From Clostridia bacterium (GTDB lineage Bacteria; Bacillota; Clostridia; JAAYHZ01): 64,000 nucleotides of DNA. The position numbers and the translations under genes are program-made. The notes beneath the pieces are model-generated. The model had not been told where the DNA came from. It searched no databases and saw nothing but the letters and a program-made list of their open reading frames with translations. Below, piece by piece: positions 2,719 to 19,685 of this stretch; position 1 is the first letter of the stretch; each line of letters begins with the position of its first letter. The stretch spans positions 224,001-288,000 of the forward strand of contig JBMNIH010000007.1 in NCBI GenBank assembly GCA_050950825.1. The letters run 5' to 3'.

Positions 2719-3423
2719 CATGCCTTCGCTTTATTGGCAGTTATACCGTCAACTTTTGGTCAATTAACAACATCTATTTCGGGACAATTTGAGCTAGCAT
2801 TAACACTTAACATCGCAAGGAAAAAGCGAGAATACTATCAATAGTTATTATTTGCATATAAAAGGTTACCACCAATGGTATTTGGTATCCTTTGGCAGAG
2901 AATGTTCGGTGCTATACCGGGAAAACATCTTAGATTATATCAGTTATCTTCGTAATATTAAGAAAGATACTGGTAGAACAATAAATTGCAAGATTAGTGC
3001 ATTGATAAAGTATAATGAATTTTTGATTGAGAAAGGAATACAGCAAGACCAAGTAGTTTCAAAGAAAGATAATATTAATGTACAGCAGACATATGCAAAC
3101 CCTTCGGATATAACTAAACAGGAAGTAGATGCTTTTAGACAACAACTATTAGAGAATGGGCATCGAGATATTTATTGTTTGGCCACATTATTAGCATATG
3201 CAGGTTTAAGAATTAGTGAAGCACTTAATATTCAGTTAACAGACTTCAATTTAACAGTTGGAGAGTTAAAGGTTAGGGGTAAGGGAGATAAAGATAGAGT
3301 TGTTTATTTAAATGATAAGATTATTAATAGTATAAGTGAGTTCTTAAGAGTGAGAGAAAGTGAAAGTCCGTATTTATTTGCAAATAGTAATGGAAAGATA
3401 ATTCATAGGTCAACAGTTAATAA

Positions 3424-5042
3424 CTCAAACTTCGCAGTAAATTAATATAATAAATTCCTAGATAATTTAATATAAGCTTTTTAAGTAATATATGTAACTA
3501 AGCGACTTTTGACTTGGGTAATCTTAGTTTTAAATATTCAGGAAGTCTAGAAATGAAAATTCTAAGAAACCCATTTACTCGCTTATCATCAATCATGAAA
3601 TACTCCATTAAGCATTCTGACAGTATTTCGAGAATCAGTTGTATTACTTCATCGAACTTTATGTCTTGCAATTCATCGTAGCATAAATAAAACAACTCAC
3701 CTATAGTTCGATTATCCATATTGTTCCGATTTTCTATTGCCAGCATGATATACCTACTGAGGACTACTGCGGTATGAGCCGTCATCATATCATATGACAA
3801 GCCTTGAAACTCTCTACCTAAATTGAGATATGTCTTGCACATTTTATAGAAAACTTCTATATCCCAACGTTTGCCATACGTTTGAATTATTTGCTCTTCC
3901 GAAAGCGCCAAATCGGTTGAAATGATGGCTATCCATTTCTTCCTGTTATTCCGATCCCGTACGAATACAATGCGAGCATCCATAGTCTCTTCTTCTTTGT
4001 TGTGAATGGATACGACAACCGACAAAAGGTATTTGGAACGACCACGTCTCTTTTTTTGAGAATTATAGATTTCCTTAAGGGTCATTTTCTTTCCGTTAAA
4101 GGAATACTTGATATTAGGAGTATCTTTAAGCCGCCCGATGCTGTGAAGCTTCAACTTCGCAATGTCCATGAGTATTGCAGGATAGGAAAACCAACTGTCG
4201 AACAGCACGTGCTTTGCAGGTATGTGTTGCTCGACTGCTTGCCGAAGCATCGCTATCATTAAATCAGGGGCTTTCTGCATGGCTTGCATTCTTCGTTTGT
4301 ATCCATTGGTGTTTTTATGGATATCATCTCTCATTTTACACAAATGTTTTTCAACTTTGCCGGATGTGAGCAAACAAAAATTAAACGGAATAAGTGTGTT
4401 GCCATCTGACCATGCAAGAGTAAGCAACCTGAATCCTTTTTTACACTTGTTGTCGGTATGATCTCTGACAAACGAAAGCATCTCTACACATTTGCTTCGT
4501 AAACGGCCGTAGAAGGTATCATCTACAACAATGACATTAATACGGTCATCCGATGTCAAATCCTTTACATGGCTGTTTATAACCGTGGATGCCAATGTCA
4601 TAACAAATGTCTGCCAGTTAATATATATAGAGTTTAGGAAACGATATACAGTATCTTTTTTAAAATCGACATTTTTGTCTCTGTTGCTGTCTTTATTTTT
4701 TATCAGGTTCATATACATACTTCTGTTTGTGAAAACCAATTGAAACAAATAGAGAAAAATTTGAATTACCGGTACACCTCTTTTTTTATAAGCATTGGCA
4801 TGTTGCAGAGCTTGATAAATTTTAAACTTTCTAAAAAAAAGATTGATTCTATCGTTAAACTGCTTTTCTTCGATATAATTTTCCGGTATACTATTCATGG
4901 CAAGGGGCTCCTTCGTTGTGATATTATGTTTTATTTGTTAATTAATATTATACCACAATCCAGGTCTCCTTGTCATACTTTTTTGCACTAAACTATTGAA
5001 TTATCTAGGTTCGAACGCACTTTTTCAAGTGCGAAGTTTGAG
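3424..5042 (-). mobile_element. IS4/IS701-like insertion sequence with 13 bp TIRs and a 7 bp target duplication
   Basis: CTCAAACTTCGCA (3424-3436) and TGCGAAGTTTGAG (5030-5042); TTAATAA at 3417-3423 and 5043-5049. Confidence 0.9.
3498..4898 (-). CDS. IS4-superfamily DDE transposase
   Basis: VVDDT, LFDSWF and YGKRWDIEVFYK (Y-R-E-K signature) motifs. Confidence 0.88.
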   Translation of the reverse strand: MNSIPENYIEEKQFNDRINLFFRKFKIYQALQHANAYKKRGVPVIQIFLYLFQLVFTNRSMYMNLIKNKDSNRDKNVDFKKDTVYRFLNSIYINWQTFVMTLASTVINSHVKDLTSDDRINVIVVDDTFYGRLRSKCVEMLSFVRDHTDNKCKKGFRLLTLAWSDGNTLIPFNFCLLTSGKVEKHLCKMRDDIHKNTNGYKRRMQAMQKAPDLMIAMLRQAVEQHIPAKHVLFDSWFSYPAILMDIAKLKLHSIGRLKDTPNIKYSFNGKKMTLKEIYNSQKKRRGRSKYLLSVVVSIHNKEEETMDARIVFVRDRNNRKKWIAIISTDLALSEEQIIQTYGKRWDIEVFYKMCKTYLNLGREFQGLSYDMMTAHTAVVLSRYIMLAIENRNNMDNRTIGELFYLCYDELQDIKFDEVIQLILEILSECLMEYFMIDDKRVNGFLRIFISRLPEYLKLRLPKSKVA

Positions 5043-5273
5043 TTAATAAGATTTTTAATAAATATAGTGATAAGATCACGCCTCATGCATTGCGACATTA
5101 TTTTTGCACGATTGCTTTGGAGGGCGGGCTATCAGTTCATGAGGTTGCCTATTTGGCAGGCCATAGCAATATTCACACTACGCTTATATATTTGAATCCG
5201 AGTAGAGAGGCAATTAGGGGAAAAATAAATAACCTGTAATTAAAGGGGTGCTTTGGCCCCTTAAAATTGGACA

Positions 5274-6227
5274 TTAACTTGCTTTTTCTATTACTTTTTC
5301 AGTTTTTTGAGCATATTCTTTATATGCCTGTTTAGGTGTTTTTAACTTAAGTCCCCAGTGTAATCTCCTGTTATTGTAAAAATCTTCCCAGTCTAATAAA
5401 GCAGCTCTCGCCTCTTCTAAACTGTCAAATTCACTTCTACTCAATAATTTTTCCTCAAGAATTCCATGATACGCTTCTATATGACCGTTTTCTTCCGGAC
5501 ATCTTACATGAGTAAATTCATGATAAATTCCTTTTATTTTGCAATATTCCGCGAAGTTCTCACTTATGTATTGAGACCCATTATCGCTCCTTAAAATAAG
5601 TCCTAACGGATCAATTCCCCTATCCTTAATTGCTTTATCTAAAGCCCTGACCGCTTTCTTTGAATTTATACTATAATCAGCATAGCTTCCAACAAGCTCT
5701 CTTGTAAAAACATCTATATAATTAATAATGTAAAATGTCCTGCCTTTTCCTGCAATATAGCCATACTTAATGTCCGTAGCCCACATTTGATTCGGTCTTC
5801 CAACTTTTCTGTCATCTACCCTTCTTCTATGTGCATGTTTCCTGTTAACTGGCTTTAAAAGTCCATTTTCGCGCATCAACCGATATACTTTCTTCTTGTT
5901 TATTTTTATCTTGTATAATACCCTGAGATGTGCAGTTACTTTCTTGTAACCATAGCAACTGCACTCTCCACTCAAAATTTCCCGAATTATTGAAACTATC
6001 TCTTCATCTTTAATTTTTCTACCTGTCTCATCCAAAGAATATCCTTCTGGCTTTCTTCCTTTTCTGTTCCCTTCAGACGAGTCCCTTCGGTTTCTATTTC
6101 TCTTCCAGTAATAGTATGTACTGCGCGCTACTTTAACTAACTTTAATACTGTTTTCGCAGCATGCCCTGCTTTTATGTATTTATCTGCTACCCCTAATCT
6201 ATCTTCAAGCCCGGGCTCGTTTTTTTT
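5274..6227 (-). CDS. IS3-family OrfB (integrase core), joined to OrfA by a predicted -1 programmed frameshift
   Basis: WATDIKY, SDNGSQY and ENGHIE motifs. An A8C run at 6227-6219 is followed by the GAGCCCGGGCTT hairpin, and the -1 frame is open from there into the 253 aa ORF. Confidence 0.85.
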   Translation of the reverse strand, partial: KKNEPGLEDRLGVADKYIKAGHAAKTVLKLVKVARSTYYYWKRNRNRRDSSEGNRKGRKPEGYSLDETGRKIKDEEIVSIIREILSGECSCYGYKKVTAHLRVLYKIKINKKKVYRLMRENGLLKPVNRKHAHRRRVDDRKVGRPNQMWATDIKYGYIAGKGRTFYIINYIDVFTRELVGSYADYSINSKKAVRALDKAIKDRGIDPLGLILRSDNGSQYISENFAEYCKIKGIYHEFTHVRCPEENGHIEAYHGILEEKLLSRSEFDSLEEARAALLDWEDFYNNRRLHWGLKLKTPKQAYKEYAQKTEKVIEKAS

Positions 6228-6502
6228 AATAGATCCTTATATATCTTAATTGCTAATTCTTTTTCACCCAGGAGTTTCTTCAATTCTTCATTTTCTCTCC
6301 GTAGTTCATACTCTTTCGAGGTAATGGAGCTTATTGCCTTTGGCGCAAGACCATCTACTCCTGTTTCCTCATATTTAGCTCTCCATTTATAGAAGGTATT
6401 AGGGCTAATATTATGCTTTCTGCATATCTCCGCTACTCTAACTCCTGCCTCATAATCCTTAATTGCTGCTAATTTTTGTTCAACTGTGAATCTCTTCCTC
6501 AT
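6194..6502 (-). CDS. IS3-family OrfA (HTH + coiled coil)
   Basis: MRKRFTVEQKL...ICRKHNISPNTFYKW HTH and ELRRENEELKK leucine zipper; ATG at 6502 with RBS. Confidence 0.88.
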   Translation of the reverse strand: MRKRFTVEQKLAAIKDYEAGVRVAEICRKHNISPNTFYKWRAKYEETGVDGLAPKAISSITSKEYELRRENEELKKLLGEKELAIKIYKDLLKKTSPGLKID

Positions 6503-6576
6503 ACTTTCTTCCCCCTTGAACAAATTGTATTACATTTTTATACAATCTGTCCAACCGTCTAAGGGGTCCTTAACAA

Positions 6577-8478
6577 GGGGCTGTTGCACTAAAAAGAAAT
6601 AGTGCACAGCCTCTTTTTAATTGATAAAAAATAAATCCCGATGCCCAAGAAGCAAGGGATTTATGATAAAATAACAATATGAAAACCTTAAAACTTAATA
6701 AGAAGTATACATTTAAACGAAGAAATTATCAACTAAAACTTCCAATAGAATTGGAATATAAAATTCCTGACGATGATCCGGTTCGCTTGTTGAGTCATTT
6801 TGTGGAGGAGATGGATTTAGAAGATTTGTATTCGACTTATTCTCGTATAAAGAGAAACCAAGCAAGCCCGCGTCAGATGCTTAAAATCTTAATTTACGCA
6901 TACATGAATCATATTTATTCATCAAGAGACATAGAAAAAGCATGTCGTCGCGATGTAAATTTTATGTACCTTTTAGAGGGTATGCTGGTACCTGATCATG
7001 CAACGTTTTCCAGGTTTCGAAGCTTGCATTTCACACCTTGTGCCAAAAGAATTTTGAGTGAAATGTCCGAATTTCTCTATGATATCGGAGAATTATCCGG
7101 CGACGCCATATTTATTGACGGCACGAAAATAGAGGCGTGTGCAAACAAATACACTTTTGTCTGGAAAAGAGCGGTCACAAAAAATCAAGAGAAGTTGCTT
7201 GCAAAATTGGCGGATTTCTTCGCGGAATGCGAGGAAAAGTACGGAATCAAAATAGTATACAATAATCAAGTCGAAATGAAACACGTTAAAAAGTTACGCA
7301 AGAGACTGTATGCCATAAAGAAGGAAGAAAACATCGAGTTCGTACATGGAAAAGGGAAGAGAAAAACACCTTTCCAACGATCCATTGAGACTTTGGAGAA
7401 TGATTTGGATAAGCTGAAGGAATATACGAAAAACATACATGTATGCGGAGACCGCAACAGTTTTTCAAAAACGGATCACGATGCGACGTTTATGAGAATG
7501 AAAGAGGACGCTATGGGCAACGGTCAGCTGAAAGCGGCATATAACATTCAGCATGGCGTTGACTCCGAGTACATAACATGGGTAACGGTGAATCAATGCA
7601 CAACGGATGCACCGACTCTAATACCTTTTTTGAATGAAATGAGATCCCATTTAAAATTCAAATACAAAAAAGTTGTCGCGGACGCAGGATACGAAAGCGA
7701 AGAAAACTATATTTACTTGGATAAAAACGGCCAATCGGCGTATATTAAACCGTTAAATTTACGAACAATCCAAAACCAAGAAATATAAAAATGACATTGG
7801 TCTTATGGAAAATATGGAATACCATGCAGAAGGAGATTATTACGTCTGTCATAACAAGAGAAAACTTGTCGTTAGCGATATAATAAAGAAAAGAAGCAAA
7901 AACGGATTTTTGAGCGAGAAAACGGTTTATACATGCGAAGATTGCAGTGATTGCTCCTTCAAAAGTAAATGTATAAAAGGAAATAGCAAGATTCCGTTGA
8001 CTGAAAGGGTAAAAAGACTTCACGTGGCGAAGGAATTTATCCGACAACGAGAAAAAGCCATGGAAAGAATACGGAGCGAAGAAGGCTGCATGCTTAGAAT
8101 AAACAGAAGCATACAGGCGGAAGGATCTTTCGGAACAATAAAGCAGGACATGGGATTTCGGAGATTTTTGTGCAGAGGTAAGGCGAATGTACTTGCCGAG
8201 AGCATACTACTGGCTATGGCTTTTAACGTAAATAAGCTTCACAGTAAAATTCAAGCCGGACGAACCGGTACACATCTTTTTCAATTTGAAAATAGTGCTT
8301 AAGTGAAAACAAATTAAAGAAAAAGCCGATTATTACAAAAGGTGTATTAAGTGCACCCTTTTTTAGTAATCGGCTTCTTTGTTGATTAAAATTAATTAAA
8401 ATTCCTTAAATTCAAGGTAAAATATTGAAAAAGAGGCAGTGCATCAGAAGTTTAAAAAACCTCTAATGCAACAACCCC
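6577..8478 (+). mobile_element. IS1182-family element, copy 1
   Basis: IRs GGGGCTGTTGCA / TGCAACAACCCC; near-identical to 17160-19057. Confidence 0.9.
6679..8302 (+). pseudogene. IS1182 transposase, frameshifted
   Basis: An extra T at 7758-7760 (AAATTTACG vs AAATTACG in copy 2) splits it into 369 aa and 165 aa ORFs. A sequencing error cannot be excluded. Confidence 0.85.
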
Positions 8479-8637
8479 TTTTTTGATCAGATTCCAATAA
8501 CGATACTTTGTACCTACATTATACATAATATAGTAAAAAATCTTATAAATTATGAACTTTAAATTGGAATAGTGTATAATATTGTTAAAGAATTAATGGA
8601 ACGTTATGGGATTATATGAATTTTAAGGGGTGAAAAT

Positions 8638-9642
8638 ATGGCGACAACTGTAAATAATGCATTTAAAGAGTTTATGCGAGATAAGGTCAACTTGGATCCG
8701 GACAAAACAAAAACTGCAAGAAAAAGCAGGGACAATCTTATAGATAATATACATAGTTTGGGTTCTAATGAAGATTTTTTCAATTTATATCATGACATTG
8801 ATATTGCATTTGGCTCATTTGCAAGAAAAACAAAAATAAGACCCTTAGATGATATTGATATAATGATTGGGATTAACGGTGACGGTAGCACTTATTATGA
8901 TTCAGGCTATGAGGTTAAAATTTATGTAAATGATGATAATTCTCCACAAAAGAGTTGTTGCAATGACAATACTAACATACTCAATTCAACAAAAGTTATT
9001 AACAAATTTATAAAAGAACTTAAAAATTTAAACGATTATAAGAAAGCGGAGACCCATAAGAATGGTGCGGCAGCCACCCTTCAACTAAAATCTTATGAAT
9101 GGAATTTTGATATTGTACCATGTTTTCGAACAACTAAAGAATCTGATGGCCGAGATTATTATTTAATACCAGATGGAAAGGGAAATTGGCAAAAAACAGA
9201 TCCACGCAAAGATAGGGATAAAGTAACTACTTTGAACCAAAAACATAATGGATTAATGTTAGAGACTATAAGATTGGTAAAGTATTGGAATAGAAGACCT
9301 ACAATGCCATTGATGCCATCTTATGCATTAGAATGTTTATTACTACAATATTTTGATAGCGTAGATAGTGTAAGTGATTATATTGATTTAAGATTTAGAG
9401 ATGTTTTATATTATATCAAAGATAACATTTGGTATTCCATTAATGATCCAAAAGAAATTCAAGGAGATTTAAACACACTTACATATGATGAAAAACTGAA
9501 AATTTCAAACAAAGCAGAAAGTGATTATGAAAAAGCAAAAGAAGCGATTTCTGCAGAAATAGATGATAAAGATCATGAGAAAGCCATTAAAAAATGGGCT
9601 GAAATATTCGGAAGCGAATTTCCAGAATATAGCGAGGATTAG
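8638..9642 (+). CDS. SMODS / cGAS-DncV-like nucleotidyltransferase (CBASS cyclase)
   Basis: FGSFARKT, DDIDI and FDIVP catalytic motifs; WQKTDP, IRLVKYWN and SYALE; C-terminal W..IFG..FP. Confidence 0.85.
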   Translation: MATTVNNAFKEFMRDKVNLDPDKTKTARKSRDNLIDNIHSLGSNEDFFNLYHDIDIAFGSFARKTKIRPLDDIDIMIGINGDGSTYYDSGYEVKIYVNDDNSPQKSCCNDNTNILNSTKVINKFIKELKNLNDYKKAETHKNGAAATLQLKSYEWNFDIVPCFRTTKESDGRDYYLIPDGKGNWQKTDPRKDRDKVTTLNQKHNGLMLETIRLVKYWNRRPTMPLMPSYALECLLLQYFDSVDSVSDYIDLRFRDVLYYIKDNIWYSINDPKEIQGDLNTLTYDEKLKISNKAESDYEKAKEAISAEIDDKDHEKAIKKWAEIFGSEFPEYSED

Positions 9643-10548
9643 ATGGATATGGATAGTAGTAATGATATTAATATAAAGCAAAACACCGAAGAAATTCTTT
9701 TATATTTGTTTGCCCAGAGGAAATTGTACTCATTGAGTAAAAGAGCACTTCATATAATGTTATTTGTTAATCTTATTTTTTATGTTTTAGGATTAATCAA
9801 TACGATTCAGAGCAATAATTATTTTAAAGCGATATATGTTATTTGGGGGGTAACTTTTTGTATATTATATATTAGAGAAGGTGAAAGAATAAATACTGCT
9901 GCTACAATGCAGGAACTTATAGACAGAAAATTATATGGGTTCGATACATACGCTCCTTTTCTGAAAGTGACGAGCCTGCATAAAATAGCATTGGAATTAA
10001 AAACAAAGTTTCCAAAAGAGTTTATTGAACAAACAAGTCGTAATGGGCAGCAAAAAGGGGTTAAGGATTGGTATTCAGATGTATCAGGAGTTTCTATTGA
10101 AAAAGCAATTATACTTTGTCAAATAGAAAATAGTGATTGGGAAACTCAACTAAGAATGAAGTATCAAAAACTAAATATATTATTGCTTGTAATTTTGCTA
10201 TCAGTATATGTTGTTATTTTTTGGAATAATAGTGTAGAAAATTTAATAATAAAACTATACCCCATATTAACAATTGTAGTAGATAGACTTTCTTATATAT
10301 ATAAGAACTATAAAAACATTAAAAGTAGTAAAGATATTAACGATAGCCTATATCAAATTTATGAAAACATTGAGGAATTCACCAAAGAAGACATTTTAAA
10401 TAAAGCCAAAGAGATTCAACATTGTATTTATGAAAGAAGAAAAAACTTTTCTCCCATTCCCAATTTATTCTATCACCTAAATAGGGAGAAGTATCAAAGT
10501 TATTCGAACCAGTATATTTTGGATCTAAAGGAAAAACTAAAAAAGTAG
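9643..10548 (+). CDS. S-4TM putative pore-forming CBASS effector
   Basis: Two pairs of hydrophobic helices plus AQRKLY, QELIDRKLYG, KDWY, CQIENxxW and IQxxIYxRR...IPNxFY motifs typical of SMODS-associated 4TM effectors. It abuts the NTase; the start may be the ATG at 9649. Confidence 0.8.
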   Translation: MDMDSSNDINIKQNTEEILLYLFAQRKLYSLSKRALHIMLFVNLIFYVLGLINTIQSNNYFKAIYVIWGVTFCILYIREGERINTAATMQELIDRKLYGFDTYAPFLKVTSLHKIALELKTKFPKEFIEQTSRNGQQKGVKDWYSDVSGVSIEKAIILCQIENSDWETQLRMKYQKLNILLLVILLSVYVVIFWNNSVENLIIKLYPILTIVVDRLSYIYKNYKNIKSSKDINDSLYQIYENIEEFTKEDILNKAKEIQHCIYERRKNFSPIPNLFYHLNREKYQSYSNQYILDLKEKLKK

Positions 10549-10576
10549 GCCATGGTAATGTTCATACTACACTTAT
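10547..10576 (+). repeat. Diverged direct repeat of recombinase codons GHxNxHTTLI (partner at 5158-5187)
   Basis: AGGCCATGGTAATGTTCATACTACACTTAT vs AGGCCATAGCAATATTCACACTACGCTTAT, 25/30 identical. Confidence 0.75.
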
Positions 10577-10661
10577 CTGACTATTATGATTACATAATGT
10601 CAAAAGTACCAGAAAGTGAAAAAATTCCGCTTATATTATCCGGTGCACCCTTTTATTTAAC

Positions 10662-12053
10662 GATAGTGTCTTGTCAAGTGGTGTAAAATGATTTCTACTT
10701 TATCTTCCCTTCGTTTCATTTATGTAAGATAGCAATCGGAGCTAATGAAAACCCATTAGCCTGTGTAAGCTTTTCCATAGATTCTAAACTGAAGTATCGC
10801 CGCCCTACCTGCCATTCATCGTTCTGCTCCATAAGCATAGTACCTACAAGGCGAATAACGGCATCACGATTAGGAAATATGCATACAACATCAGTCCGAC
10901 GGCGTATCTCACGATTAAGCCGTTCCAATGGATTCGTAGAATGAATCTGTATCCAATGCTCACGGGGAAAGGCCATATACGCCAATATATCCTCTTCGGC
11001 TGCTTCAAGGATTTCCATTGCTTTCGGAAAACGCCCCCTCAGTTCATCTACCACATGTCTTAGCTGTTCCCTTGCGGATTCCTGATCATTTTGTGCAAAA
11101 ATGGTGCGTATGATTGAGGAGACCATTCCTTGGCACTTCTTCGGCACTTGGCTTAATACGTTCCGCATAAAATGTACTCGGCATCTTTGCCATGTGCTCC
11201 CGGTTAAAACCTTCTTTATGGCGGATTTTAACCCCTCATGGGCATCACTTACAACTAACTTCACCCCTTTAAGTCCCCTTGCTACAAGCTTTCTCAGAAA
11301 CTCTTCCCAAAAAGCTCCGTCTTCACTCATGCCGACATCAAAACCTAGTATCTCTCGTTCACCGGACTGATTTACACCTACGGCTATTACAAGTGCCATA
11401 CTGCATACTCTTCCACCTTCACGAACCTTAGGAAAAGTAGCATCAAGCCAAAGATAAGGGTATTCTCCTTCGAGTATGCGGTTCTTGAACTCGGTGACAA
11501 AGCCATCCAATTGCTTGCTGATCCCGGAAACTTCGCTTTTATCCATCCCTTTAATTCCGAGAGATTCTACCAACTCATCTACTTTTCTAGTGCTGACACC
11601 GTGCACATAAGCTTCCTGCACCACATTTAATAAAGCTTTTTCTGACATCTTCCGAGGCTCTAATAAACTTGGGAAATAGCTTCCATGCCTCAATTTGGGT
11701 ATGCTTAACTGTAACGTACCAAGGCGAGTATCCCATTCTCTTTGTCGGTATCCATTACGATGATTGTTCCGATTCTCACTTCGTTCATACTTTTCCGCAC
11801 CGATCATCGACGTAACTTCCGCATCCATCAGAGCATTGATTAACAGCGTAAGCGCTTCCTTTAAAAAATCCTTATCTTTTTCAACAACATACTTGCTAAG
11901 TTGCTCTAAAAGTGACATTCTATTTTTAGTAGCCACGGTATGACCTCCTTTACTTTATCTTTTTTATTTGAATCTAATAAAGTAAAAATCATATCGTGGT
12001 TACTCTTGTCAAGCATACTCCACGAAATTTACACCACTACTTAAGACTATAAC
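10662..12053 (-). mobile_element. IS256-family element
   Basis: Imperfect IRs sharing GTCTT...AGTGGTGTAAA; no target duplication visible. Confidence 0.85.
10716..11936 (-). CDS. IS256 (mutator-family) transposase
   Basis: RNGYR, PKLR, WLDA, VSDAHEGL, QRCRVHF and STNPLERLNREIRRR motifs. Confidence 0.93.
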   Translation of the reverse strand: MATKNRMSLLEQLSKYVVEKDKDFLKEALTLLINALMDAEVTSMIGAEKYERSENRNNHRNGYRQREWDTRLGTLQLSIPKLRHGSYFPSLLEPRKMSEKALLNVVQEAYVHGVSTRKVDELVESLGIKGMDKSEVSGISKQLDGFVTEFKNRILEGEYPYLWLDATFPKVREGGRVCSMALVIAVGVNQSGEREILGFDVGMSEDGAFWEEFLRKLVARGLKGVKLVVSDAHEGLKSAIKKVLTGSTWQRCRVHFMRNVLSQVPKKCQGMVSSIIRTIFAQNDQESAREQLRHVVDELRGRFPKAMEILEAAEEDILAYMAFPREHWIQIHSTNPLERLNREIRRRTDVVCIFPNRDAVIRLVGTMLMEQNDEWQVGRRYFSLESMEKLTQANGFSLAPIAILHK

Positions 12054-12054
12054 C

Positions 12055-12279
12055 AACCAACCGACTGCTGTTTTGATGTCGATTGAAAACTACAAGCAAA
12101 TTAAAAAATTACAAGAATTTTTTGAAAAGCTTGAGACACAAATATTACTTGAGCAAGCAATAGAAATTCAGAATAAATTAGATGAAAATCAAATGTTGAC
12201 TATGGAAGATGTTATGAATAAACATAACATTTCCGAAGAAGAACTGAAAAAGGCTATGGAAAGTGTGGAAATTGAATGA
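12055..12279 (+). pseudogene. Phd/YefM-type antitoxin, N-terminus removed at the IS256 end
   Basis: The frame reads NQPTAVLMSIENY... directly from the IS end, which matches the last strand of a Phd fold. It overlaps the toxin gene by ATGA. Confidence 0.7.
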
Positions 12280-12665
12280 TGTGGACCATAAAGTTTTCAC
12301 CTGAAGCAGATATAGACATTTCCAAATTGGATAGATCTTTAGTGTTACAAGTATTAGCAGAAATAAAAAAAGTTCGTTCTAATCCATTACCACATCCGAA
12401 TGGATATGGGAAACCTCTTGGTAACAAAGCAGGGAATAATTTGACAGGATTTTTTAAAATCAAGTATCGGGGAATCGGTATACGGGTAGTATACTCATTA
12501 GTTTTAAACAAACAAATTATGAATATTTTAATCATCTCAAAAAGGGATGATGATGAATGCTATAAAATGGCAGGGGCTCTTTATAAAAAGTATGGAAGTT
12601 CATTATTTGATGTAATTGGCATAAGAAGACGAACAGTTTTAGAGAAATTATCCCTAGCAGACTAA
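12276..12665 (+). CDS. RelE/ParE-family type II toxin
   Basis: WTIKFSPEA..DI, GKPLGN...LTGFFKIK and GIRVVY motifs; lies downstream of the antitoxin. Confidence 0.8.
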   Translation: MMWTIKFSPEADIDISKLDRSLVLQVLAEIKKVRSNPLPHPNGYGKPLGNKAGNNLTGFFKIKYRGIGIRVVYSLVLNKQIMNILIISKRDDDECYKMAGALYKKYGSSLFDVIGIRRRTVLEKLSLAD

Positions 12666-12806
12666 CGTATTGCTGTTAAGTACCTAAAATGACTGTTTTT
12701 TATTGTCTTTTATTAACAACCATTATGTAATAGCTTTGTTTGCGTGCCTACCTTTGGATTAGATGGACGGCGCCCCTTTGGGAATCATCCGCGATACCCG
12801 AAAAAA

Positions 12807-14216
12807 TCAATTCATTGTTATGAAAACACCGTCGCAGGAGCCGGGGGTAACCGTAATTTCATCCGTGTTTTCCGTTCTTGTCCGTTCGCCGTGTTCATAT
12901 ACCGAAACCGTATATTTCCGTGCGAATTTAACCGTGATATTCTGTGAAGCGTACGGGTCGTAAATGTTCCGGCAGTTTACCAGCATAAGCGCGTTTCTTC
13001 CCTGCGTGTTTGCAAAATATCCCGCCAGCGCGGTACTTTCGCTTTCAATGCTTTTTACCGCGGGAATACCCGTAAAGCCCTGCGCCTTGTTGTTCTTTTT
13101 CTGCTTTCTGCAGGCAAAAACGAAATGATGATTAAGTCTTTTTGCCTTTGCGAATTCGACTCCAAGGCTTCGGTAATCCTTCAGCACGGGCGACAGCTTG
13201 GCAATTTCCGCATTGACTCTTTTCACATAGAGGTACTGCTCCGTAAGGTTGCCGTTGTAGTCTATAATGCCGATGGCGTCCCTGCCCCAGACGGGATTGT
13301 AGGATGCATGGATAATGCTTCGGCAGCCGTAGCAAAGGGAGGCGTAAACCTGCCATTTTATCATTTCGAAGGTTGTCATGGTATATAAATGCGAAAACCA
13401 CCTCATCTGACTCTGGATGTAAAGCCAAAAATCCTTTCCGTCGCGGCGGCAGGCGTTGCCGATTGTGTGGTAGGTATTCAGGTACAATGACATTCCGATC
13501 TTGTTCAATATCCTTGACGGATGGAAGGGATAGACGTCAACCGAAAGATAATCGGATTCCACCATGGAAGGAAACTTATCGACGTATTCCGCATAGGAAT
13601 TTTCGCCCCACACGCTCTTTATCCCCCAGTCGGGCAGCAGATTCGTAAAGACGAATCGGTCGGGAAAATGCTTCCGATATGCGCGATGGAATTTTTGGAC
13701 AAACCCGAAATCGCTTGAATGGGGCTCGTCGGAACAACAGTCGCCCACGGATGCCGGATGCGGCACGAAACGGTCTAACGGCGACGGATTTTCAACATCG
13801 GCACTCAAAAGGATACTCTTTAGAAATTTGCGGTTCTCTTTGCCGATAACGGCGATATTGTATTTTTCGCACCAATCGAGGATTTTCTTCGCATACTCCC
13901 CGTCGTTGCCGTTGATGATGAAATCAAAGCCCGCCTCCGAAATCAGCTTGATGTCGTTTTCCGTCACCTCGGGAACCCTTCCGAAAATCGTTGTACCGGA
14001 AAGAATTCTGTTCCTGTCGAGTCTTCCCCCGATATTCGCGGGCTTTCTCTCAACCGGCTGTCCTAGCTTTCCTTCGATAATCAGTTTTTTGTCCCGCTTT
14101 CGAATTTCCGTTTCGTTCTTCGTTTTTGCGGGCGACACAAACGCCATAAAATCCATCAGCGCCGTCAGATATTTATTGTCAAAGATGTCCGCCGCAATCT
14201 TAAGCTTTTTCTTCAT
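12807..14216 (-). CDS. Hypothetical glycoside-hydrolase-like TIM-barrel protein
   Basis: SDEP and SVDVYPF motifs and a C-terminal beta domain, reminiscent of clan GH-A/beta-galactosidase-like proteins. Confidence 0.5.
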   Translation of the reverse strand: MKKKLKIAADIFDNKYLTALMDFMAFVSPAKTKNETEIRKRDKKLIIEGKLGQPVERKPANIGGRLDRNRILSGTTIFGRVPEVTENDIKLISEAGFDFIINGNDGEYAKKILDWCEKYNIAVIGKENRKFLKSILLSADVENPSPLDRFVPHPASVGDCCSDEPHSSDFGFVQKFHRAYRKHFPDRFVFTNLLPDWGIKSVWGENSYAEYVDKFPSMVESDYLSVDVYPFHPSRILNKIGMSLYLNTYHTIGNACRRDGKDFWLYIQSQMRWFSHLYTMTTFEMIKWQVYASLCYGCRSIIHASYNPVWGRDAIGIIDYNGNLTEQYLYVKRVNAEIAKLSPVLKDYRSLGVEFAKAKRLNHHFVFACRKQKKNNKAQGFTGIPAVKSIESESTALAGYFANTQGRNALMLVNCRNIYDPYASQNITVKFARKYTVSVYEHGERTRTENTDEITVTPGSCDGVFITMN

Positions 14217-14518
14217 AGAACTACACCCTTCCTCCGCCCCGCGTTTTGTAGGGCCGACCTCTGTTGAAGAATATTCACCTGTTTCTACTTGTTGTTTGTC
14301 CTCCGGATTATTCTACCTTAGGAACATCACAATTTCAATAAAAAGGATTTGTATCCTTTTTTGTGTAACCGCAAAAAAGGGCTGCAGAGAGCTTTATAAT
14401 ACATATTTTCAATCTTCCATTTTCCGTCCCGTTTATATACAATAATCCTGTACAACTTAAGTTTATTCAGCCTTACGGTCGGTACCGACATCATATCAAA
14501 GGTAAGGAGAATCGAATT

Positions 14519-16759
14519 ATGAGCAGGAAAATTCCGTGGGGAACTCGTGTAGCATGGTATTTCTACAACAATCCCGAGTTTTTTGAAAAAACCGATGAAG
14601 ATTTTGAGAACGATGCCAAGGAGCTTGCCGAAAGGGGCATAACGGTCGTGATCTTATTTACCATGACCCATTTTCGCTGGAGCTTCTACCCTTATTGGGA
14701 TCGTATCAACAATCTTTTGCGAAGGATTTGCAATGCCTTCCATAAGTACGGCATCAAAGTGGTGGAGCACCACAGTACAAGTCTTTGCGAATGCCCTCTT
14801 CCCGAAGAGGAATGGGAAGACCGGGTAGGAGGCATCTTCCGTGAAAGAGGCTTGTATTTTACCTCCGACAAAGCCCGCTACGGACCTTATCTTGACCGTT
14901 GGTCGAAAATCAAGCCGTTTTTGTGCAATCCGGATTCCAAGGTGGAGGGGGTTCCCTTCTTATCTATAGTCCAAGTAGACGGCCGCACGGGGGCTCGCTC
15001 CGTATCCAATTACCAAACGAGCACCGTTTGCTACAATAACGAAGACTTCAGGCGTATCTATTTTTCCTATCTGGAATCCCTGTACAAATGCGGAATCGAC
15101 GGAATCATGACGGACGACGTACAGTTTTTTAGCGGCGGGAACGCCTGCGCTTGTTCCGTATGCCGCCGTCTTTTCAAAGAACAAACCGGATACGATTTGC
15201 CTTCTCCCGAGGAGTGGAACCAAGGTTTTATCGGCAATTACGACAATCCGGTGTTTGTTGCTTTTAACAGGTTTAAGCTGGAGAGCGCAAAGCGCTTTCA
15301 ATTGGACGTGGATGCTCATTTTCGGTCTTTGGGATACGATATGATTCGCATCGACTATTTCGGATGCTCTCTTTCTTGGCCGAATACCACCTCCTATCCT
15401 TTTCATCAATGTGCCCACGCAAAAGACCTCATATTCCAAGAGAATACCCGCTTAAATGTAACAAAGCTTTCTTGGCCTTCCTATTACTGTGCCGCGGTTT
15501 ACCTGTACGAATTGGGAAAGATGTATGACATTCCTTCCATGTCCGTCTTTTACGATTCGAAGGACTTTAGCATCTATTTCGGTTGGGCCATGTCCATAGC
15601 ATGGGGGCAGATGTTCAACGGTTCTTTCCCTTATACCCAAGAAACGAAAAGGGCCATAAAGCTGCTTCATAATTTTGAACGCCGTTACCCCGACATTGTG
15701 TATAACCAAAAAAAGCGGGCCGATGCCGCCGTGTTCTTTTCCACGGACATGCAAGATATTTGGCATGATACGTCCTTGGACATATGGAAAGCCGTTCCCG
15801 CTTGGCTTCAAGCCGGTGCCTTTTCCGGATTGTGCATGAGCATTGTAACCCACAAACAAGCGGAGCAGGTATCGGAGCTTAGCAAAAACAAAATCATTAT
15901 TGTTCCGAACACCTTAATGCTAAAGGACAGTGAAATTCAAAATTTAGGCGCTTATGCGAAAGAGGGAGGACGTCTGGTTTTATGCGGACAAGTCGGTATT
16001 TATGATGAAAATATGCGCCCTCGGCCCTACGATCGTATTAAAGAATTGCTGCAAAGTACCGTTACCCTAAAGCCTCTTTCGGAAAGCTTGTCCGTAACCC
16101 TTCCGGATTTAAGCCCCATGCCCTTTAATACCGTATACGAAGGCGGGGAAGTGTTGTACAACACGGATAAAGGCGCCGCCTGTGTTCGCGAAAAAGTGGG
16201 CTTAGGTGAAATCATATACATCGGTGTGGAATCCCAAAAGATTCCCGTCCACGGGACCGCACGAGGCAATCGTCCTACGGCCATAAAAGCCTCGCAGGAC
16301 GCCGAGCAGCTGGCACGGCCGAATCTTGCTCCGAGATACGCCGTTGATACATTACGAGCCACATTGGGACGTTTCTTGCTCGGCTTGGTTTCCGAGCCTG
16401 TCCTTTATGCGGACAAACAGAAAGAATACTTTACCGCCGTTTTCGATTCTCACGACGGCAAAAGCCGTATTGTCCATTTGGTGAATATTAAGGATACGCT
16501 GCAAGCGGAAGGAACGCCATATGCCTTTGAAACGGTGATTCGTGCCTTTGACATATTCAACGAGAACGGAAACGTACCCGAAAAGAACGGGGCCATAACG
16601 CTGGATGTGGAATGCGATTTTACGCCTTCCGCCGTTCGGATTCTAACGCCGGAGCGAACGGAACCCGTTGAAGTGTCTTTTGATTACGGCAAAAGACTGC
16701 AAATTCGTATTCCCGAAAACATATTCTCCGGGTATGCGGCGGTGGAAATATGCAAATAG
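14519..16759 (+). CDS. Hypothetical glycoside hydrolase with a beta-galactosidase trimerisation-like (GATase1-like) domain
   Basis: IDGIMTDD, CACSVC metal motif, IIVPN...L..YAKEGGRLV; RBS AAGGAG. Confidence 0.55.
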   Translation: MSRKIPWGTRVAWYFYNNPEFFEKTDEDFENDAKELAERGITVVILFTMTHFRWSFYPYWDRINNLLRRICNAFHKYGIKVVEHHSTSLCECPLPEEEWEDRVGGIFRERGLYFTSDKARYGPYLDRWSKIKPFLCNPDSKVEGVPFLSIVQVDGRTGARSVSNYQTSTVCYNNEDFRRIYFSYLESLYKCGIDGIMTDDVQFFSGGNACACSVCRRLFKEQTGYDLPSPEEWNQGFIGNYDNPVFVAFNRFKLESAKRFQLDVDAHFRSLGYDMIRIDYFGCSLSWPNTTSYPFHQCAHAKDLIFQENTRLNVTKLSWPSYYCAAVYLYELGKMYDIPSMSVFYDSKDFSIYFGWAMSIAWGQMFNGSFPYTQETKRAIKLLHNFERRYPDIVYNQKKRADAAVFFSTDMQDIWHDTSLDIWKAVPAWLQAGAFSGLCMSIVTHKQAEQVSELSKNKIIIVPNTLMLKDSEIQNLGAYAKEGGRLVLCGQVGIYDENMRPRPYDRIKELLQSTVTLKPLSESLSVTLPDLSPMPFNTVYEGGEVLYNTDKGAACVREKVGLGEIIYIGVESQKIPVHGTARGNRPTAIKASQDAEQLARPNLAPRYAVDTLRATLGRFLLGLVSEPVLYADKQKEYFTAVFDSHDGKSRIVHLVNIKDTLQAEGTPYAFETVIRAFDIFNENGNVPEKNGAITLDVECDFTPSAVRILTPERTEPVEVSFDYGKRLQIRIPENIFSGYAAVEICK

Positions 16760-16828
16760 TTATATAAATTGAGTAACACCTTGATATATTTTTTATATAT
16801 CGACATCAAACATCTTTAGGAGGATAAA

Positions 16829-17146
16829 ATGATCGTTACAACTACACCGAATATTGAGGGAAAAAGGATTGTCGCTTACAAGGGCATCGTTTTCGGCGAA
16901 GTGGTCTCCGGCGTCAACTTTATAAAGGATTTTGCCGCAGGCTTGGCTAACTTTTTCGGAGGCCGTTCCGGCTCATACGAAGGCGAATTGATCGAAGCAA
17001 GGGAGGCGGCCATAAGGGAAATGAGCCAAAGGGCAATGAGCATAGGAGCCAATGCCGTTGTGGGAGTAGACATTGATTACGAAGTGCTAGGCCAAGGAAA
17101 CATGCTGATGGTGACGGCGTCCGGCACCGCGGTGGTGGTCGAATAA
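16829..17146 (+). CDS. ybjQ: YbjQ/UPF0145 family protein
   Basis: [11 protein letters not shown]...[13 protein letters not shown]...ASGTAV; RBS AGGAGG. Confidence 0.9.
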
Positions 17147-17159
17147 ACGGCAAAAAGAA

Positions 17160-19057
17160 GGGGCTGTTGCACTAAAAAGAAATAGTGCACAGCCTCTTTT
17201 TAATTGATAAAAAATAAATCCCGATGCCCAAGAAGCAAGGGATTTATGATAAAATAACAATATGAAAACCTTAAAACTTAATAAGAAGTATACATTTAAA
17301 CGAAGAAATTATCAACTAAAACTTCCAATAGAATTGGAATATAAAATTCCTGACGATGATCCGGTTCGCTTGTTGAGTCATTTTGTGGAGGAGATGGATT
17401 TAGAAGATTTGTATTCGACTTATTCTCGTATAAAGAGAAACCAAGCAAGCCCGCGTCAGATGCTTAAAATCTTAATTTACGCATACATGAATCATATTTA
17501 TTCATCAAGAGACATAGAAAAAGCATGTCGTCGCGATGTAAATTTTATGTACCTTTTAGAGGGTATGCCGGTACCTGATCATGCAACGTTTTCCAGGTTT
17601 CGAAGCTTGCATTTCACACCTTGTGCCAAAAGAATTTTGAGTGAAATGTCCGAATTTCTCTATGATATCGGAGAATTATCCGGCGACGCCATATTTATTG
17701 ACGGCACGAAAATAGAGGCGTGTGCAAACAAATACACTTTTGTCTGGAAAAGAGCGGTCACAAAAAATCAAGAGAAGTTGCTTGCAAAATTGGCGGATTT
17801 CTTCGCGGAATGCGAGGAAAAGTACGGAATCAAAATAGTATACAATAATCAAGTCGAAATGAAACACGTTAAAAAGTTACGCAAGAGACTGTATGCCATA
17901 AAGAAGGAAGAAAACATCGAGTTCGTACATGGAAAAGGGAAGAGAAAAACACCTTTCCAACGATCCATTGAGACTTTGGAGAATGATTTGGATAAGCTGA
18001 AGGAATATACGAAAAACATACATGTATGCGGAGACCGCAACAGTTTTTCAAAAACGGATCACGATGCGACGTTTATGAGAATGAAAGAGGACGCTATGGG
18101 CAACGGTCGGCTGAAAGCGGCATATAACATTCAGCATGGCGTTGACTCCGAGTACATAACATGGGTAACGGTGAATCAATGCACAACGGATGCACCGACT
18201 CTAATACCTTTTTTGAATGAAATGAGATCCCATTTAAAATTCAAATACAAAAAAGTTGTCGCGGACGCAGGATACGAAAGCGAAGAAAACTATATTTACT
18301 TGGATAAAAACGGCCAATCGGCGTATATTAAACCGTTAAATTACGAACAATCCAAAACCAAGAAATATAAAAATGACATTGGTCTTATGGAAAATATGGA
18401 ATACCATGCAGAAGGAGATTATTACGTCTGTCATAACAAGAGAAAACTTGTCGTTAGCGATATAATAAAGAAAAGAAGCAAAAACGGATTTTTGAGCGAG
18501 AAAACGTATACATGCGAAGATTGCAGTGATTGCTCCTTCAAAAGTAAATGTATAAAAGGAAATAGCAAGATTCCGTTGACTGAAAGGGTAAAAAGACTTC
18601 ACGTGGCGAAGGAATTTATCCGACAACGAGAAAAAGCCATGGAAAGAATACGGAGCGAAGAAGGCTGCATGCTTAGAATAAACAGAAGCATACAGGCGGA
18701 AGGATCTTTCGGAACAATAAAGCAGGACATGGGATTTCGGAGATTTTTGTGCAGAGGTAAGGCGAATGTACTTGCCGAGAGCATACTACTGGCTATGGCT
18801 TTTAACGTAAATAAGCTTCACAGTAAAATTCAAGCCGGACGAACCGGTACACATCTTTTTCAATTTGAAAATAGTGCTTAAGTGAAAACAAATTAAAGAA
18901 AAAGCCGATTATTACAAAAGGTGTATTAAGTGCACCCTTTTTTAGTAATCGGCTTCTTTGTTGATTAAAATTAATTAAAATTCCTTAAATTCAAGGTAAA
19001 ATATTGAAAAAGAGGCAGTGCATCAGAAGTTTAAAAAACCTCTAATGCAACAGCCCC
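17160..19057 (+). mobile_element. IS1182-family element, copy 2
   Basis: Perfect 12 bp IRs GGGGCTGTTGCA / TGCAACAGCCCC; sits between convergent genes. Confidence 0.92.
17262..18881 (+). CDS. IS1182 transposase (full-length ORF)
   Basis: SSRDIE, PDHATFSRFR, IDGTKIEA, TDHDATFMRMK, ADAGY and AEGSFG motifs. Confidence 0.92.
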   Translation: MKTLKLNKKYTFKRRNYQLKLPIELEYKIPDDDPVRLLSHFVEEMDLEDLYSTYSRIKRNQASPRQMLKILIYAYMNHIYSSRDIEKACRRDVNFMYLLEGMPVPDHATFSRFRSLHFTPCAKRILSEMSEFLYDIGELSGDAIFIDGTKIEACANKYTFVWKRAVTKNQEKLLAKLADFFAECEEKYGIKIVYNNQVEMKHVKKLRKRLYAIKKEENIEFVHGKGKRKTPFQRSIETLENDLDKLKEYTKNIHVCGDRNSFSKTDHDATFMRMKEDAMGNGRLKAAYNIQHGVDSEYITWVTVNQCTTDAPTLIPFLNEMRSHLKFKYKKVVADAGYESEENYIYLDKNGQSAYIKPLNYEQSKTKKYKNDIGLMENMEYHAEGDYYVCHNKRKLVVSDIIKKRSKNGFLSEKTYTCEDCSDCSFKSKCIKGNSKIPLTERVKRLHVAKEFIRQREKAMERIRSEEGCMLRINRSIQAEGSFGTIKQDMGFRRFLCRGKANVLAESILLAMAFNVNKLHSKIQAGRTGTHLFQFENSA

Positions 19058-19064
19058 TTTCTTC

Positions 19065-19685
19065 TTAATCGGTCTTATTCTGCTGATTAATCATAGCCGC
19101 CTGCATGGGCAGTCCGGTAGGTCCGATGATTTTGGTTACAAATCCGGCCATTTCCTTCGGCTGCTGTTTGCGTCCGGTTTTCAGCCATGTCTCCAAAAGT
19201 CCGATGTATCCGTTAATGATAAAGGAATTGAACAATTCGTATTCTTCCGGGCTTAAGGATAGCCCCACTTCCTTCCAAATACTCGAGCATTTTTCATCCA
19301 CCAGCTTCTTTACACGTTGCAAAAAGGCCATATCTCCGTTAGGTCCAAGCATGATTTGGCACCACTCGTGGTTTTTATCAAAGAAGGCAAATACTTTGGT
19401 TAGGATATAATACGGATCGGCTTCTTGGAAAAAAGGGGCTTTGATGGGGTCGATCAGTTCGTAAAACTCGTTAAAAAATTCTTCCTCCACCTTTTTGATC
19501 ATATCAAAGATATCCGTATAGTGGTAGTAGAAAGTACCCCGATTCACGTCCGCCAGATCGCATAACTCCTTTACCGTGATACTCGAATAAGGCTTTTTTT
19601 TAAGCAAAGCAATCAAGCATTCTTTTAGTCTTTTTTTTGTGTGTCGGACGCTTCTGTTCTCCGCTTTCTTGTTTTCCATATCCAT
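19065..19685 (-). CDS. TetR/AcrR family regulator
   Basis: ITVKELCDLADVNRGTFYYHY HTH; divergent from the ABC exporter. Confidence 0.9.
   Translation of the reverse strand: MDMENKKAENRSVRHTKKRLKECLIALLKKKPYSSITVKELCDLADVNRGTFYYHYTDIFDMIKKVEEEFFNEFYELIDPIKAPFFQEADPYYILTKVFAFFDKNHEWCQIMLGPNGDMAFLQRVKKLVDEKCSSIWKEVGLSLSPEEYELFNSFIINGYIGLLETWLKTGRKQQPKEMAGFVTKIIGPTGLPMQAAMINQQNKTD

Follow-up and report, generated by a model that had tools for sequence, protein, structure and literature searches.

The pdif/Xer modules of Acinetobacter plasmids and the integrase hotspots of P4-like satellites and prophages carry exchangeable cargo, often defence or toxin-antitoxin genes. For Firmicutes elements, tyrosine integrases that target rpsI, as well as accretion in tandem followed by decay, are among the features described (PMC5704250). 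A further account deals with the archaeal 'suicidal' integrases, whose integration splits the gene into N- and C-terminal parts that flank the element. It names them exclusive to archaea, and going by this source they are the only known case of a recombination site inside an integrase gene (PMC8371274). The subject here is a 64,000-nt stretch from a Clostridia bacterium (contig JBMNIH010000007.1, positions 224,001 to 288,000; referred to as the window, with the contig abbreviated C7 and the 3.55-Mb genome G000). It contains the gene of a Xer-like tyrosine recombinase followed by a cyclic oligonucleotide-based anti-phage signalling system (CBASS), and 30 nt from the 3' part of the recombinase gene recur at the end of the last CBASS gene, which encodes an S-4TM effector. 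With a probability of roughly 0.7, this orphan piece is a one-off relic of the merging and decay of a composite island.

The locus resembles the accretion of integrative and conjugative, integrative and mobilizable and cis-mobilizable elements described for Streptococcus at rpsI and other ribosomal-protein genes (PMC5704250): It has a site behind rpsI, candidate att-like repeats, recombinase remnants and heavy decay. It differs in its anti-phage cargo and its small Xer-like enzyme of 287 aa, and of the tandem stage only a presumed scar is seen. Similarly to the integrases of Sulfolobus spindle-shaped viruses, a part of an integrase gene forms a separate fragment at an element border. Here, however, the resident gene is complete and continuous in relatives (L002, L003, L004 and others), the second gene is represented only by a C-terminal fragment, and an N-terminal fragment was found neither next to the cargo nor in the remainder of the genome. 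With integrons (attI x attC) the locus shares a tyrosine recombinase beside a variable-cargo slot and a repeat at the far end. In contrast to integrons, the repeat is a coding piece devoid of hairpin potential, the cargo has a promoter-like leader of its own, gene and cargo are co-oriented, and only one event is seen. The best NCBIfam hits of the recombinase are XerA/XerD-like, all under the curated cut-offs, and integron-integrase models reach 83 bits (cut-off 265) and 59 bits (cut-off 435); neither an attC hairpin nor an IntI-type integrase nor recurrent cassette arrays were found. The pdif/Xer modules and integrase-adjacent hotspots likewise have Xer-type recombinases or integrase-side slots with exchangeable cargo, but here no inverted Xer-type sites flank the cargo and the positions of the junctions vary among relatives.

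Copy 1 of the repeat (GGCCATAGCAATATTCACACTACGCTTATA, 5159-5188) comprises the recombinase codons G-H-S-N-I-H-T-T-L-I; the resident tail, which starts at 5159, translates as GHSNIHTTLIYLNPSREAIRGKINNL and ends in a stop codon. Copy 2 (GGCCATGGTAATGTTCATACTACACTTATC, 10548-10577) reads G-H-G-N-V-H-T-T-L-I, followed by TGA. In codon register 24 of the 30 nt match. None of the 6 differences affects a second codon position and 4 affect third positions, and the similarity breaks off sharply at both ends. In the 3.55-Mb genome no further copies of either 30-mer were found at up to 7 mismatches. The repeat announced by the original prediction is therefore real, as the relatives discussed below prove homology. 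Its count of 25 matches in 30 holds for the registers 5158-5187 and 10547-10576, but these coordinates lie 1 base too far to the left, since they include a shared A. Its statement that copy 2 begins inside the S-4TM stop codon is correct: The first G of copy 2 is the G of TAG (10546-10548).

The origin of copy 2 became apparent from relatives. Scanning metagenome contigs with the S-4TM protein yielded 14 loci, 7 close and 7 more distant. The close ones (L013-L017, L022 and L026) share the block of recombinase, leader and CBASS with 98.6-99.9% identity and lack the IS3, IS1182 and IS4 insertion sequences (ISs) found in the window; in L013-L017 the S-4TM protein is 100% identical to that of the window. 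The orphan follows directly upon the S-4TM stop in 7/7 of them. In six (L014-L017, L022 and L026) it is a complete 27-codon tail, GHGNVHTTLLYLNPSRESMRNKINQL plus stop codon, while contig L013 ends 38 nt into the tail. Over 81 nt this tail differs from that of the recombinase gene in L004 by 8 nt and 1 aa (90% identity). It is 86% identical to L005, and its likeness to L010 spans 189 nt, the tail and about 100 nt beyond. L004, L005 and L010 form lineage B of the recombinase family, approximately 80% identical to the gene in the window, which itself belongs to lineage A (L002, L003, L007 and L008; 91-99% identity). Accordingly, the 30-mer of the orphan has 5/30 mismatches to lineage B and 6/30 to the resident gene. 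In the 3' direction the orphan tail is followed by a terminator hairpin, a promoter-like stretch and an open reading frame (ORF) of more than 1894 aa (L016 3006-8690) with weak Pfam matches to NACHT/NPHP3_N/AAA_22 (E 1e-6 to 5e-7) and without a PADLOC hit. The 7 distant CBASS loci (65-87% protein identity) have neither recombinase nor tail, and their S-4TM genes are about equally long; therefore, the CBASS-derived DNA ends within the stop codon. This bears out two further elements of the prediction, that copy 2 came from a coding homologue and that it marks a cargo boundary, as it sits exactly there. Its estimate of about 2.15 kb between the copies after subtraction of the ISs also fits: In the IS-free L016 the copies start 2178 nt apart (513 and 2691), and the interval contains nothing but the recombinase tail, a terminator with the promoter leader, and the pair of CBASS genes.

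Judged by its sequence, the orphan is what remains of the 3'-terminal codons of a second recombinase gene, one of lineage B and similar to L004. That gene preceded its own terminator, promoter and large NACHT-like gene, and its codon 261 (of 287) became fused to the end of the S-4TM gene once, in a common ancestor; the junction is common to the window and the 7 metagenome contigs. Among 60 relatives, a search with window DNA 10400-10660 matched only its own genome, since only two near relatives were in the set. A comparison of the CBASS DNA with plasmids in distant mode yielded remote CD-NTase matches only and no useful context.

At the 3' end of the S-4TM gene (window 10537-10548, ...CT A_AAA_AAG TAG) the -1 frame reads V-GHGNVHTT... 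into the orphan tail, and the heptamer presumably resembles a dnaX-type -1 slippery site. The A-run comprises 6 A in the window and L013-L017 and 8 in L022 and L026, where S-4TM ends with ...KKSRPW. As the frame is not conserved, the slippery-like heptamer is probably a coincidence.

The most probable course of events starts with two related islands that may have stood in tandem and shared an attachment site. A deletion or illegitimate recombination would then have removed everything from the S-4TM stop codon to the GH codons of the second gene. This corresponds to the alternative offered by the original prediction, the remnant of a second integrase, which fits best: The relatives carry a lineage-B tail at this place, although the complete second gene was not found. 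Signs of tandem arrangement and decay are present elsewhere in the family, too, with three copies of a repeat termed R (see below) in L008, two in L003, and an N-terminal recombinase fragment in L006. The latter locus, from Tepidibacter thalassicus, contains at 14325-14515 a piece of a second recombinase (residues 30-102) 3.6 kb downstream of the intact gene.

Several observations weigh against this reading. A complete second recombinase gene behind CBASS was present in 0/14 S-4TM loci, therefore the tandem stage can only be inferred. The left edge of the relic lies within the S-4TM stop codon, with no remnant of R or a spacer, which is tight for a random deletion. Furthermore, the recombinase 5' parts joined to the identical CBASS block in the window, L016/L015 and L017 are about 10% apart (48 differences in 480 nt between the window and L016). 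They switch to identity 24 nt (window versus L016) or 3 nt (L017 versus both) before the GH codons, and identity continues for more than 2 kb. The block thus starts near the GH codons, where a site-specific model would place the junction. In addition, the tail of L007 is a chimera of lineages A and B. The argument from the block start is weakened by two considerations: Contigs from short-read metagenomes may be chimeric exactly at conserved stretches, and other mosaic breakpoints are found in the gene at -240, -211, -100, -52 and -30. When diverged alleles recombine, most crossovers would be expected where conservation is highest. The link of the L016 allele to CBASS, on the other hand, recurs in another data set, in contig X1 (937 nt, 2 differences).

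Decay continued in the window after the joining event. Window 10574-10661 has a perfect counterpart (100% identity) within the ORF 3006-8690 of L016, at 4561-4648. A 1843-nt deletion (L016 2718-4560), with a single base of microhomology at its joint, left only 27 nt of the orphan tail (...ACACTT) and fused this stump to about codon 519 of the NACHT-like ORF. As its joint lies at this point, the right edge of the repeat, before the codon of the catalytic Tyr, is a secondary deletion joint. An IS256-family element then removed the rest of the NACHT-like gene in the window. Window 10662-16000 has no match in L013-L026; the DNA past IS256 is unlike L016. In addition, IS3- and IS1182-family elements inserted between recombinase and CBASS. 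On this reading, the 30-nt repeat has no role today.

An unlikely alternative to the merging and decay of two islands is that an intact lineage-B gene was split by the insertion of a lineage-A segment with CBASS at its end, and that the 5' part of the split gene was left on the other side of the insert. This would account for the clean junction without R remnants and for the fact that the orphan tail retains its own terminator, promoter and downstream gene. However, tblastn detected no 5' fragment of a second recombinase in the genome, L022 and L026 have no such fragment in the 420-760 nt that precede their resident gene, and no element with recognisable ends is found at the junction.

Still more doubtful is an exchange site or hotspot at the L-A-G-H codons, before the catalytic Tyr, that would swap right-hand modules between islands. 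Such a module would comprise recombinase tail, terminator/leader and anti-phage cargo, and the swap would rebuild the gene and sometimes leave the displaced tail behind. The integron-like capture inside the integrase gene advanced by the original prediction belongs here. It could draw on the left edge of the orphan, 1-4 nt before GGC, on the divergent 5' parts that turn identical shortly before the GH codons, on the chimeric L007 tail, on tails that in several pairs diverge a little less than the remainder of the gene, and on cargo that varies between close relatives. It was not confirmed: The orphan tail stems from a single event, and a second tail was found at 0/21 other family loci. These 21 loci comprise the 10 from species genomes (searched with the 30-mers at up to 9 mismatches and by tblastn), 4 that a pattern search in 400 genomes of the class had brought up, with flanks limited to about 1.5 kb, and 7 viral contigs. 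In the 400-genome scan, 5 other genomes matched once each, one of them (G077) without a recombinase by tblastn, and G000 alone matched twice. In the viral contigs each match lies inside a recombinase gene, and C7:200001-252000 contains no further tail.

Other features of the family argue against such a site as well. The near-identical block is not bounded by the two copies but crosses the orphan tail and takes in about 2 kb of the large ORF. Where other cargos begin, their left junctions are located behind the stop codon (as in L003), in the terminator/promoter leader or in the final third of the tail, and 0 at the GH codons; in L002, L007 and L008, resident tail, terminator and most of the leader are continuous with the gene despite a DUF7662 cargo. 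Among Logan contigs, 20 entries from 13 studies contain the L016 stretch, and 4 runs from 4 studies were compared with L016:1-5000. Their contigs leave L016 at 564-571, 622-624 and 736-768, and none of the loose ends listed diverges at 513, with 20 more beyond those listed. The contigs of the 4 runs contain no joint that links the two tails as a skip or circle; as contigs drop rare variants, they are silent on excision. The single joint listed connects L016 1013 to 1226, in one contig and inside the CD-NTase gene. The longest run common to the two 30-mers is 7 nt (AGGCCAT), and no dyad is evident in them by eye. On both strands the tails show no attC-like fold (z +1.3 to +1.9; 183-198 of 200 shuffles reach an equally good or better fold). 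The only dyad-type site was found in R, far from the cargo edges, and the many mosaic breakpoints fit ordinary homologous recombination.

A chance likeness of a non-coding 30-mer to a conserved recombinase motif can practically be dismissed: The nucleotide match alone would be within chance for a free search (all-against-all comparison of 30-mers with at least 25 matches on the + strand of the window yielded 4 clusters, three long repeats and this pair, and two Markov shuffles gave 0 and 1 such short pairs, about 0.5 per shuffled window), but in relatives a full recombinase tail stands at the same place, where similarity runs 81 nt to the stop codon and 26/27 residues equal the L004 tail.

The resident recombinase was compared within a family set of 10 loci from species genomes. 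The intact enzyme has 287 aa (L002). Nine of the 10 loci contain the motif GH[ST]N[IV][HQ]TT[LM][IL]Y, and L002 has HIT for HTT. In the window the gene is dead twice. An IS21-family element (1-2805, + strand; istA 185-1570, istB 1551-2363; other genome copies align to 1-2737 and 264-2805) stands in place of codons 1-18 and about 300 nt upstream; relatives of the recombinase align only from window 2805 on (L002 975). In G296, a genome of another family, the 298 nt between brxL and int, gone from the window, are kept. The 5' part of the recombinase (2806-3423, + strand, residues 19 to about 224 of 287; Pfam Phage_integrase, E 1e-13) is 98.7% identical at the nt level to the intact L002 gene. An IS4-family insertion (3419-5050, - strand) with a 9-bp target duplication and three other genome copies splits the gene. 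Its terminal inverted repeats are at 3417-3436 and 5030-5049, and relatives are uninterrupted at the site with a 9-nt overlap, among them L002, L007 and L008. The 3' part (5041-5238, + strand, stop at 5238; Pfam E 3e-11) is 92% identical to L002, L003 and L008. With the recombinase as query, a search of viral contigs turned up only relatives of 47% identity. The viral contigs L034, L037, L038 and L039 carry relatives of 52-56% identity beside a second, distant tyrosine recombinase (22-31% identity).

CBASS occupies an exchangeable slot 3' of the recombinase. The predicted system is of type I, as the gene of its CD-NTase is accompanied by that of an effector alone and ancillary genes are absent. 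It begins with a promoter-like leader (8484-8637, + strand, 154 nt), followed by the cyclase gene (CD-NTase; 8638-9642, + strand; Pfam SMODS, PADLOC cyclase PDLC00802 with E 6.5e-148) and the gene of the S-4TM effector (9643-10548, + strand; Pfam S_4TM E 3.4e-32, PADLOC 4TM effector E 6.6e-34). In L002, L007 and L008, recombinase and terminator are followed by the leader of the window (8475-8612, 87-92% identical) and then by the gene of a 253-aa DUF7662 protein. The leader also aligns (alignment A1) with L018, L020 and L025, CBASS loci that lack a recombinase, and looks like a shared regulatory module. In this alignment, window 8518-8637 corresponds to about 4163-4290 in L018, to sequence in L020 and L025, and to 10789-10960 in L008, 92% alike and located before the unrelated DUF7662 gene.

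The cargo differs between close relatives, as the original prediction had anticipated, and includes CBASS I, CBASS II, Hachiman-like, Mokosh-like and DUF7662 genes. The slot holds a type II CBASS with cyclase, E1-E2 and SAVED effector in L003 (11008-15191, diverging right after the recombinase stop), a HamB-like helicase (Hachiman-like) in L010 (10632-14871), an MkoA-like kinase-helicase (Mokosh-like) in L005 (1359-3791), a 774-aa SEC-C protein in L004 (3040-5364) and the DUF7662 protein in L008 (10960-11721). Behind the orphan tail in L016, the NACHT-like gene described above (3006-8690) takes this position. In the metagenome runs X3 and X6, the summed contig depth is 10-20x higher over the recombinase gene (L016 1-668) than over the CBASS genes, and the recombinase gene varies at many positions; therefore, many alleles with other cargos coexist there.

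On its right side the cargo of L002, L003 and L008 is bordered by R, a repeat of approximately 450-470 nt that also lies directly after rpsI. Copies are located at C7:207489-207940 in G000, at 2307-2774, 11731-12194 and 12196-12323 in L008, at 2752-3230 in L002 and at 15840-16319 and 16571-16674 in L003. L008 thus has three copies (with the dyad) and L003 two, G000 retains only the left one, and R is absent from G002, a genome of the same family as G000, and from G296. It contains a terminator, a dyad GAGTTTGT-N8-ACAAAGTTTG in two spacer variants and 4-5 copies of CACGAGCAAACTTTGTCA. The dyad stands at the start of every R copy and is the only one that resembles a recombination site. The pattern GTTTGT-N8-ACAAA[CG] was found only at R starts and is lacking in window 1-26000 and in L014, L016, L022 and L026; in this search, limited to that site type, no pdif-type arrangement was found. 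R is likely the attachment or binding region of the island, the attachment role being predicted from these features. The idea that the R start (ATGTTCAT...TACACAC) mimics the NVHTT segment, and that the orphan hence arose by site-specific deletion, was rejected, because the orphan DNA to the left of the NVHTT segment (AGGCCATGGTA) is itself derived from a recombinase.

The region as a whole is an integrative defence island of about 40 kb that adjoins rpsI and is riddled with ISs. Its order is R, a type 1 bacteriophage exclusion (BREX) system, the Xer-like recombinase of lineage A, the promoter leader and type I CBASS. In the 20 kb before the window (L012, C7:204001-224000), rplM-rpsI (L012 2627-3485) are followed by R, an IS256 and the complete type 1 BREX (6084-19376) with brxA, brxB, brxC, pglX, pglZ and brxL, after which the IS21 element begins; a frameshift splits pglX (10851-14120 and 14014-14592). 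In G002, DNA found in G000 from C7:248032 on comes about 1.1 kb after rpsI. Therefore, the insertion in G000, directly behind rpsI and absent from G002, amounts to about 40 kb, with its far end at approximately window 24000; host synteny with G002 restarts only near window 24032. G296 has the same order of rpsI, BREX and recombinase, and in the 114 C-terminal residues that were compared, the BrxL proteins share 99% identity. Its BREX shares 91-93% nt identity with that of G000, except for about 1.3 kb in pglX that are approximately 68% alike or unalignable and are perhaps a different specificity region. The island of L008 is located directly 3' of rpsI, too.

The remaining features of the window were delimited by alignment to other copies of each IS within G000. 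The IS3-family element (5243-6575, left border approximate, - strand; ORFs orfA/orfB at 5274-6035 and 6194-6523) lies in the recombinase terminator. Another genome copy aligns to 5295-6575, and the element is missing from L013-L017, L022 and L026. It abuts an IS1182-family element with a frameshifted transposase (6571-8483, + strand), of which the genome has several copies and which is missing from the relatives. Behind the S-4TM gene follow the orphan-tail stump (10548-10574, + strand; the homology may start at 10544-10547), the internal piece of the NACHT-like ORF (10574-10660, + strand, about codons 519-548, 100% identical to L016) and the IS256-family element that cuts this remnant (10661-12056, - strand, no target duplication, six other genome copies). 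Two small ORFs (12073-12665, + strand), the second ParE-like (Pfam ParE_toxin E 7e-4, below cut-off), are probably a toxin-antitoxin pair inside the island. The IS256 copies of G000 are located at C7:208023, C7:234661, C11:25795, C4:36061, C4:454413, C2:333058 and C8:118664. An 8-bp target duplication was found at 1/7 copies with flanks examined, the one on C8, and no pair of flanks matches across copies. Six copies without target duplication suggest many IS-mediated rearrangements in G000. No specific rearrangement could be reconstructed for copies A (C7:208023-209414) and B (window 10661-12056), which are in direct orientation and each about 82 nt from a landmark, as their flanks are unrelated.

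If the GH codons were an exchange point, this would be a new route for the exchange of defence cargo in bacteria, with the recombinase gene itself harbouring the site, but the data at hand speak rather against it. The scar itself is most likely ordinary and not the sign of a new integron-like capture. As a by-product, the analysis yielded a family of Xer-like recombinases in Clostridia and other Bacillota with islands at rpsI in three genomes (G000, L008 and G296). The slot 3' of the recombinase holds a different anti-phage system or candidate in almost every relative and could serve as a source of unknown defence genes, for example those of the DUF7662 protein and the NACHT-like protein of more than 1894 aa. 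Read as the relic of a merger, the scar shows a defence island that grew when parts of two related elements were joined, and that deletions and five kinds of IS subsequently eroded.

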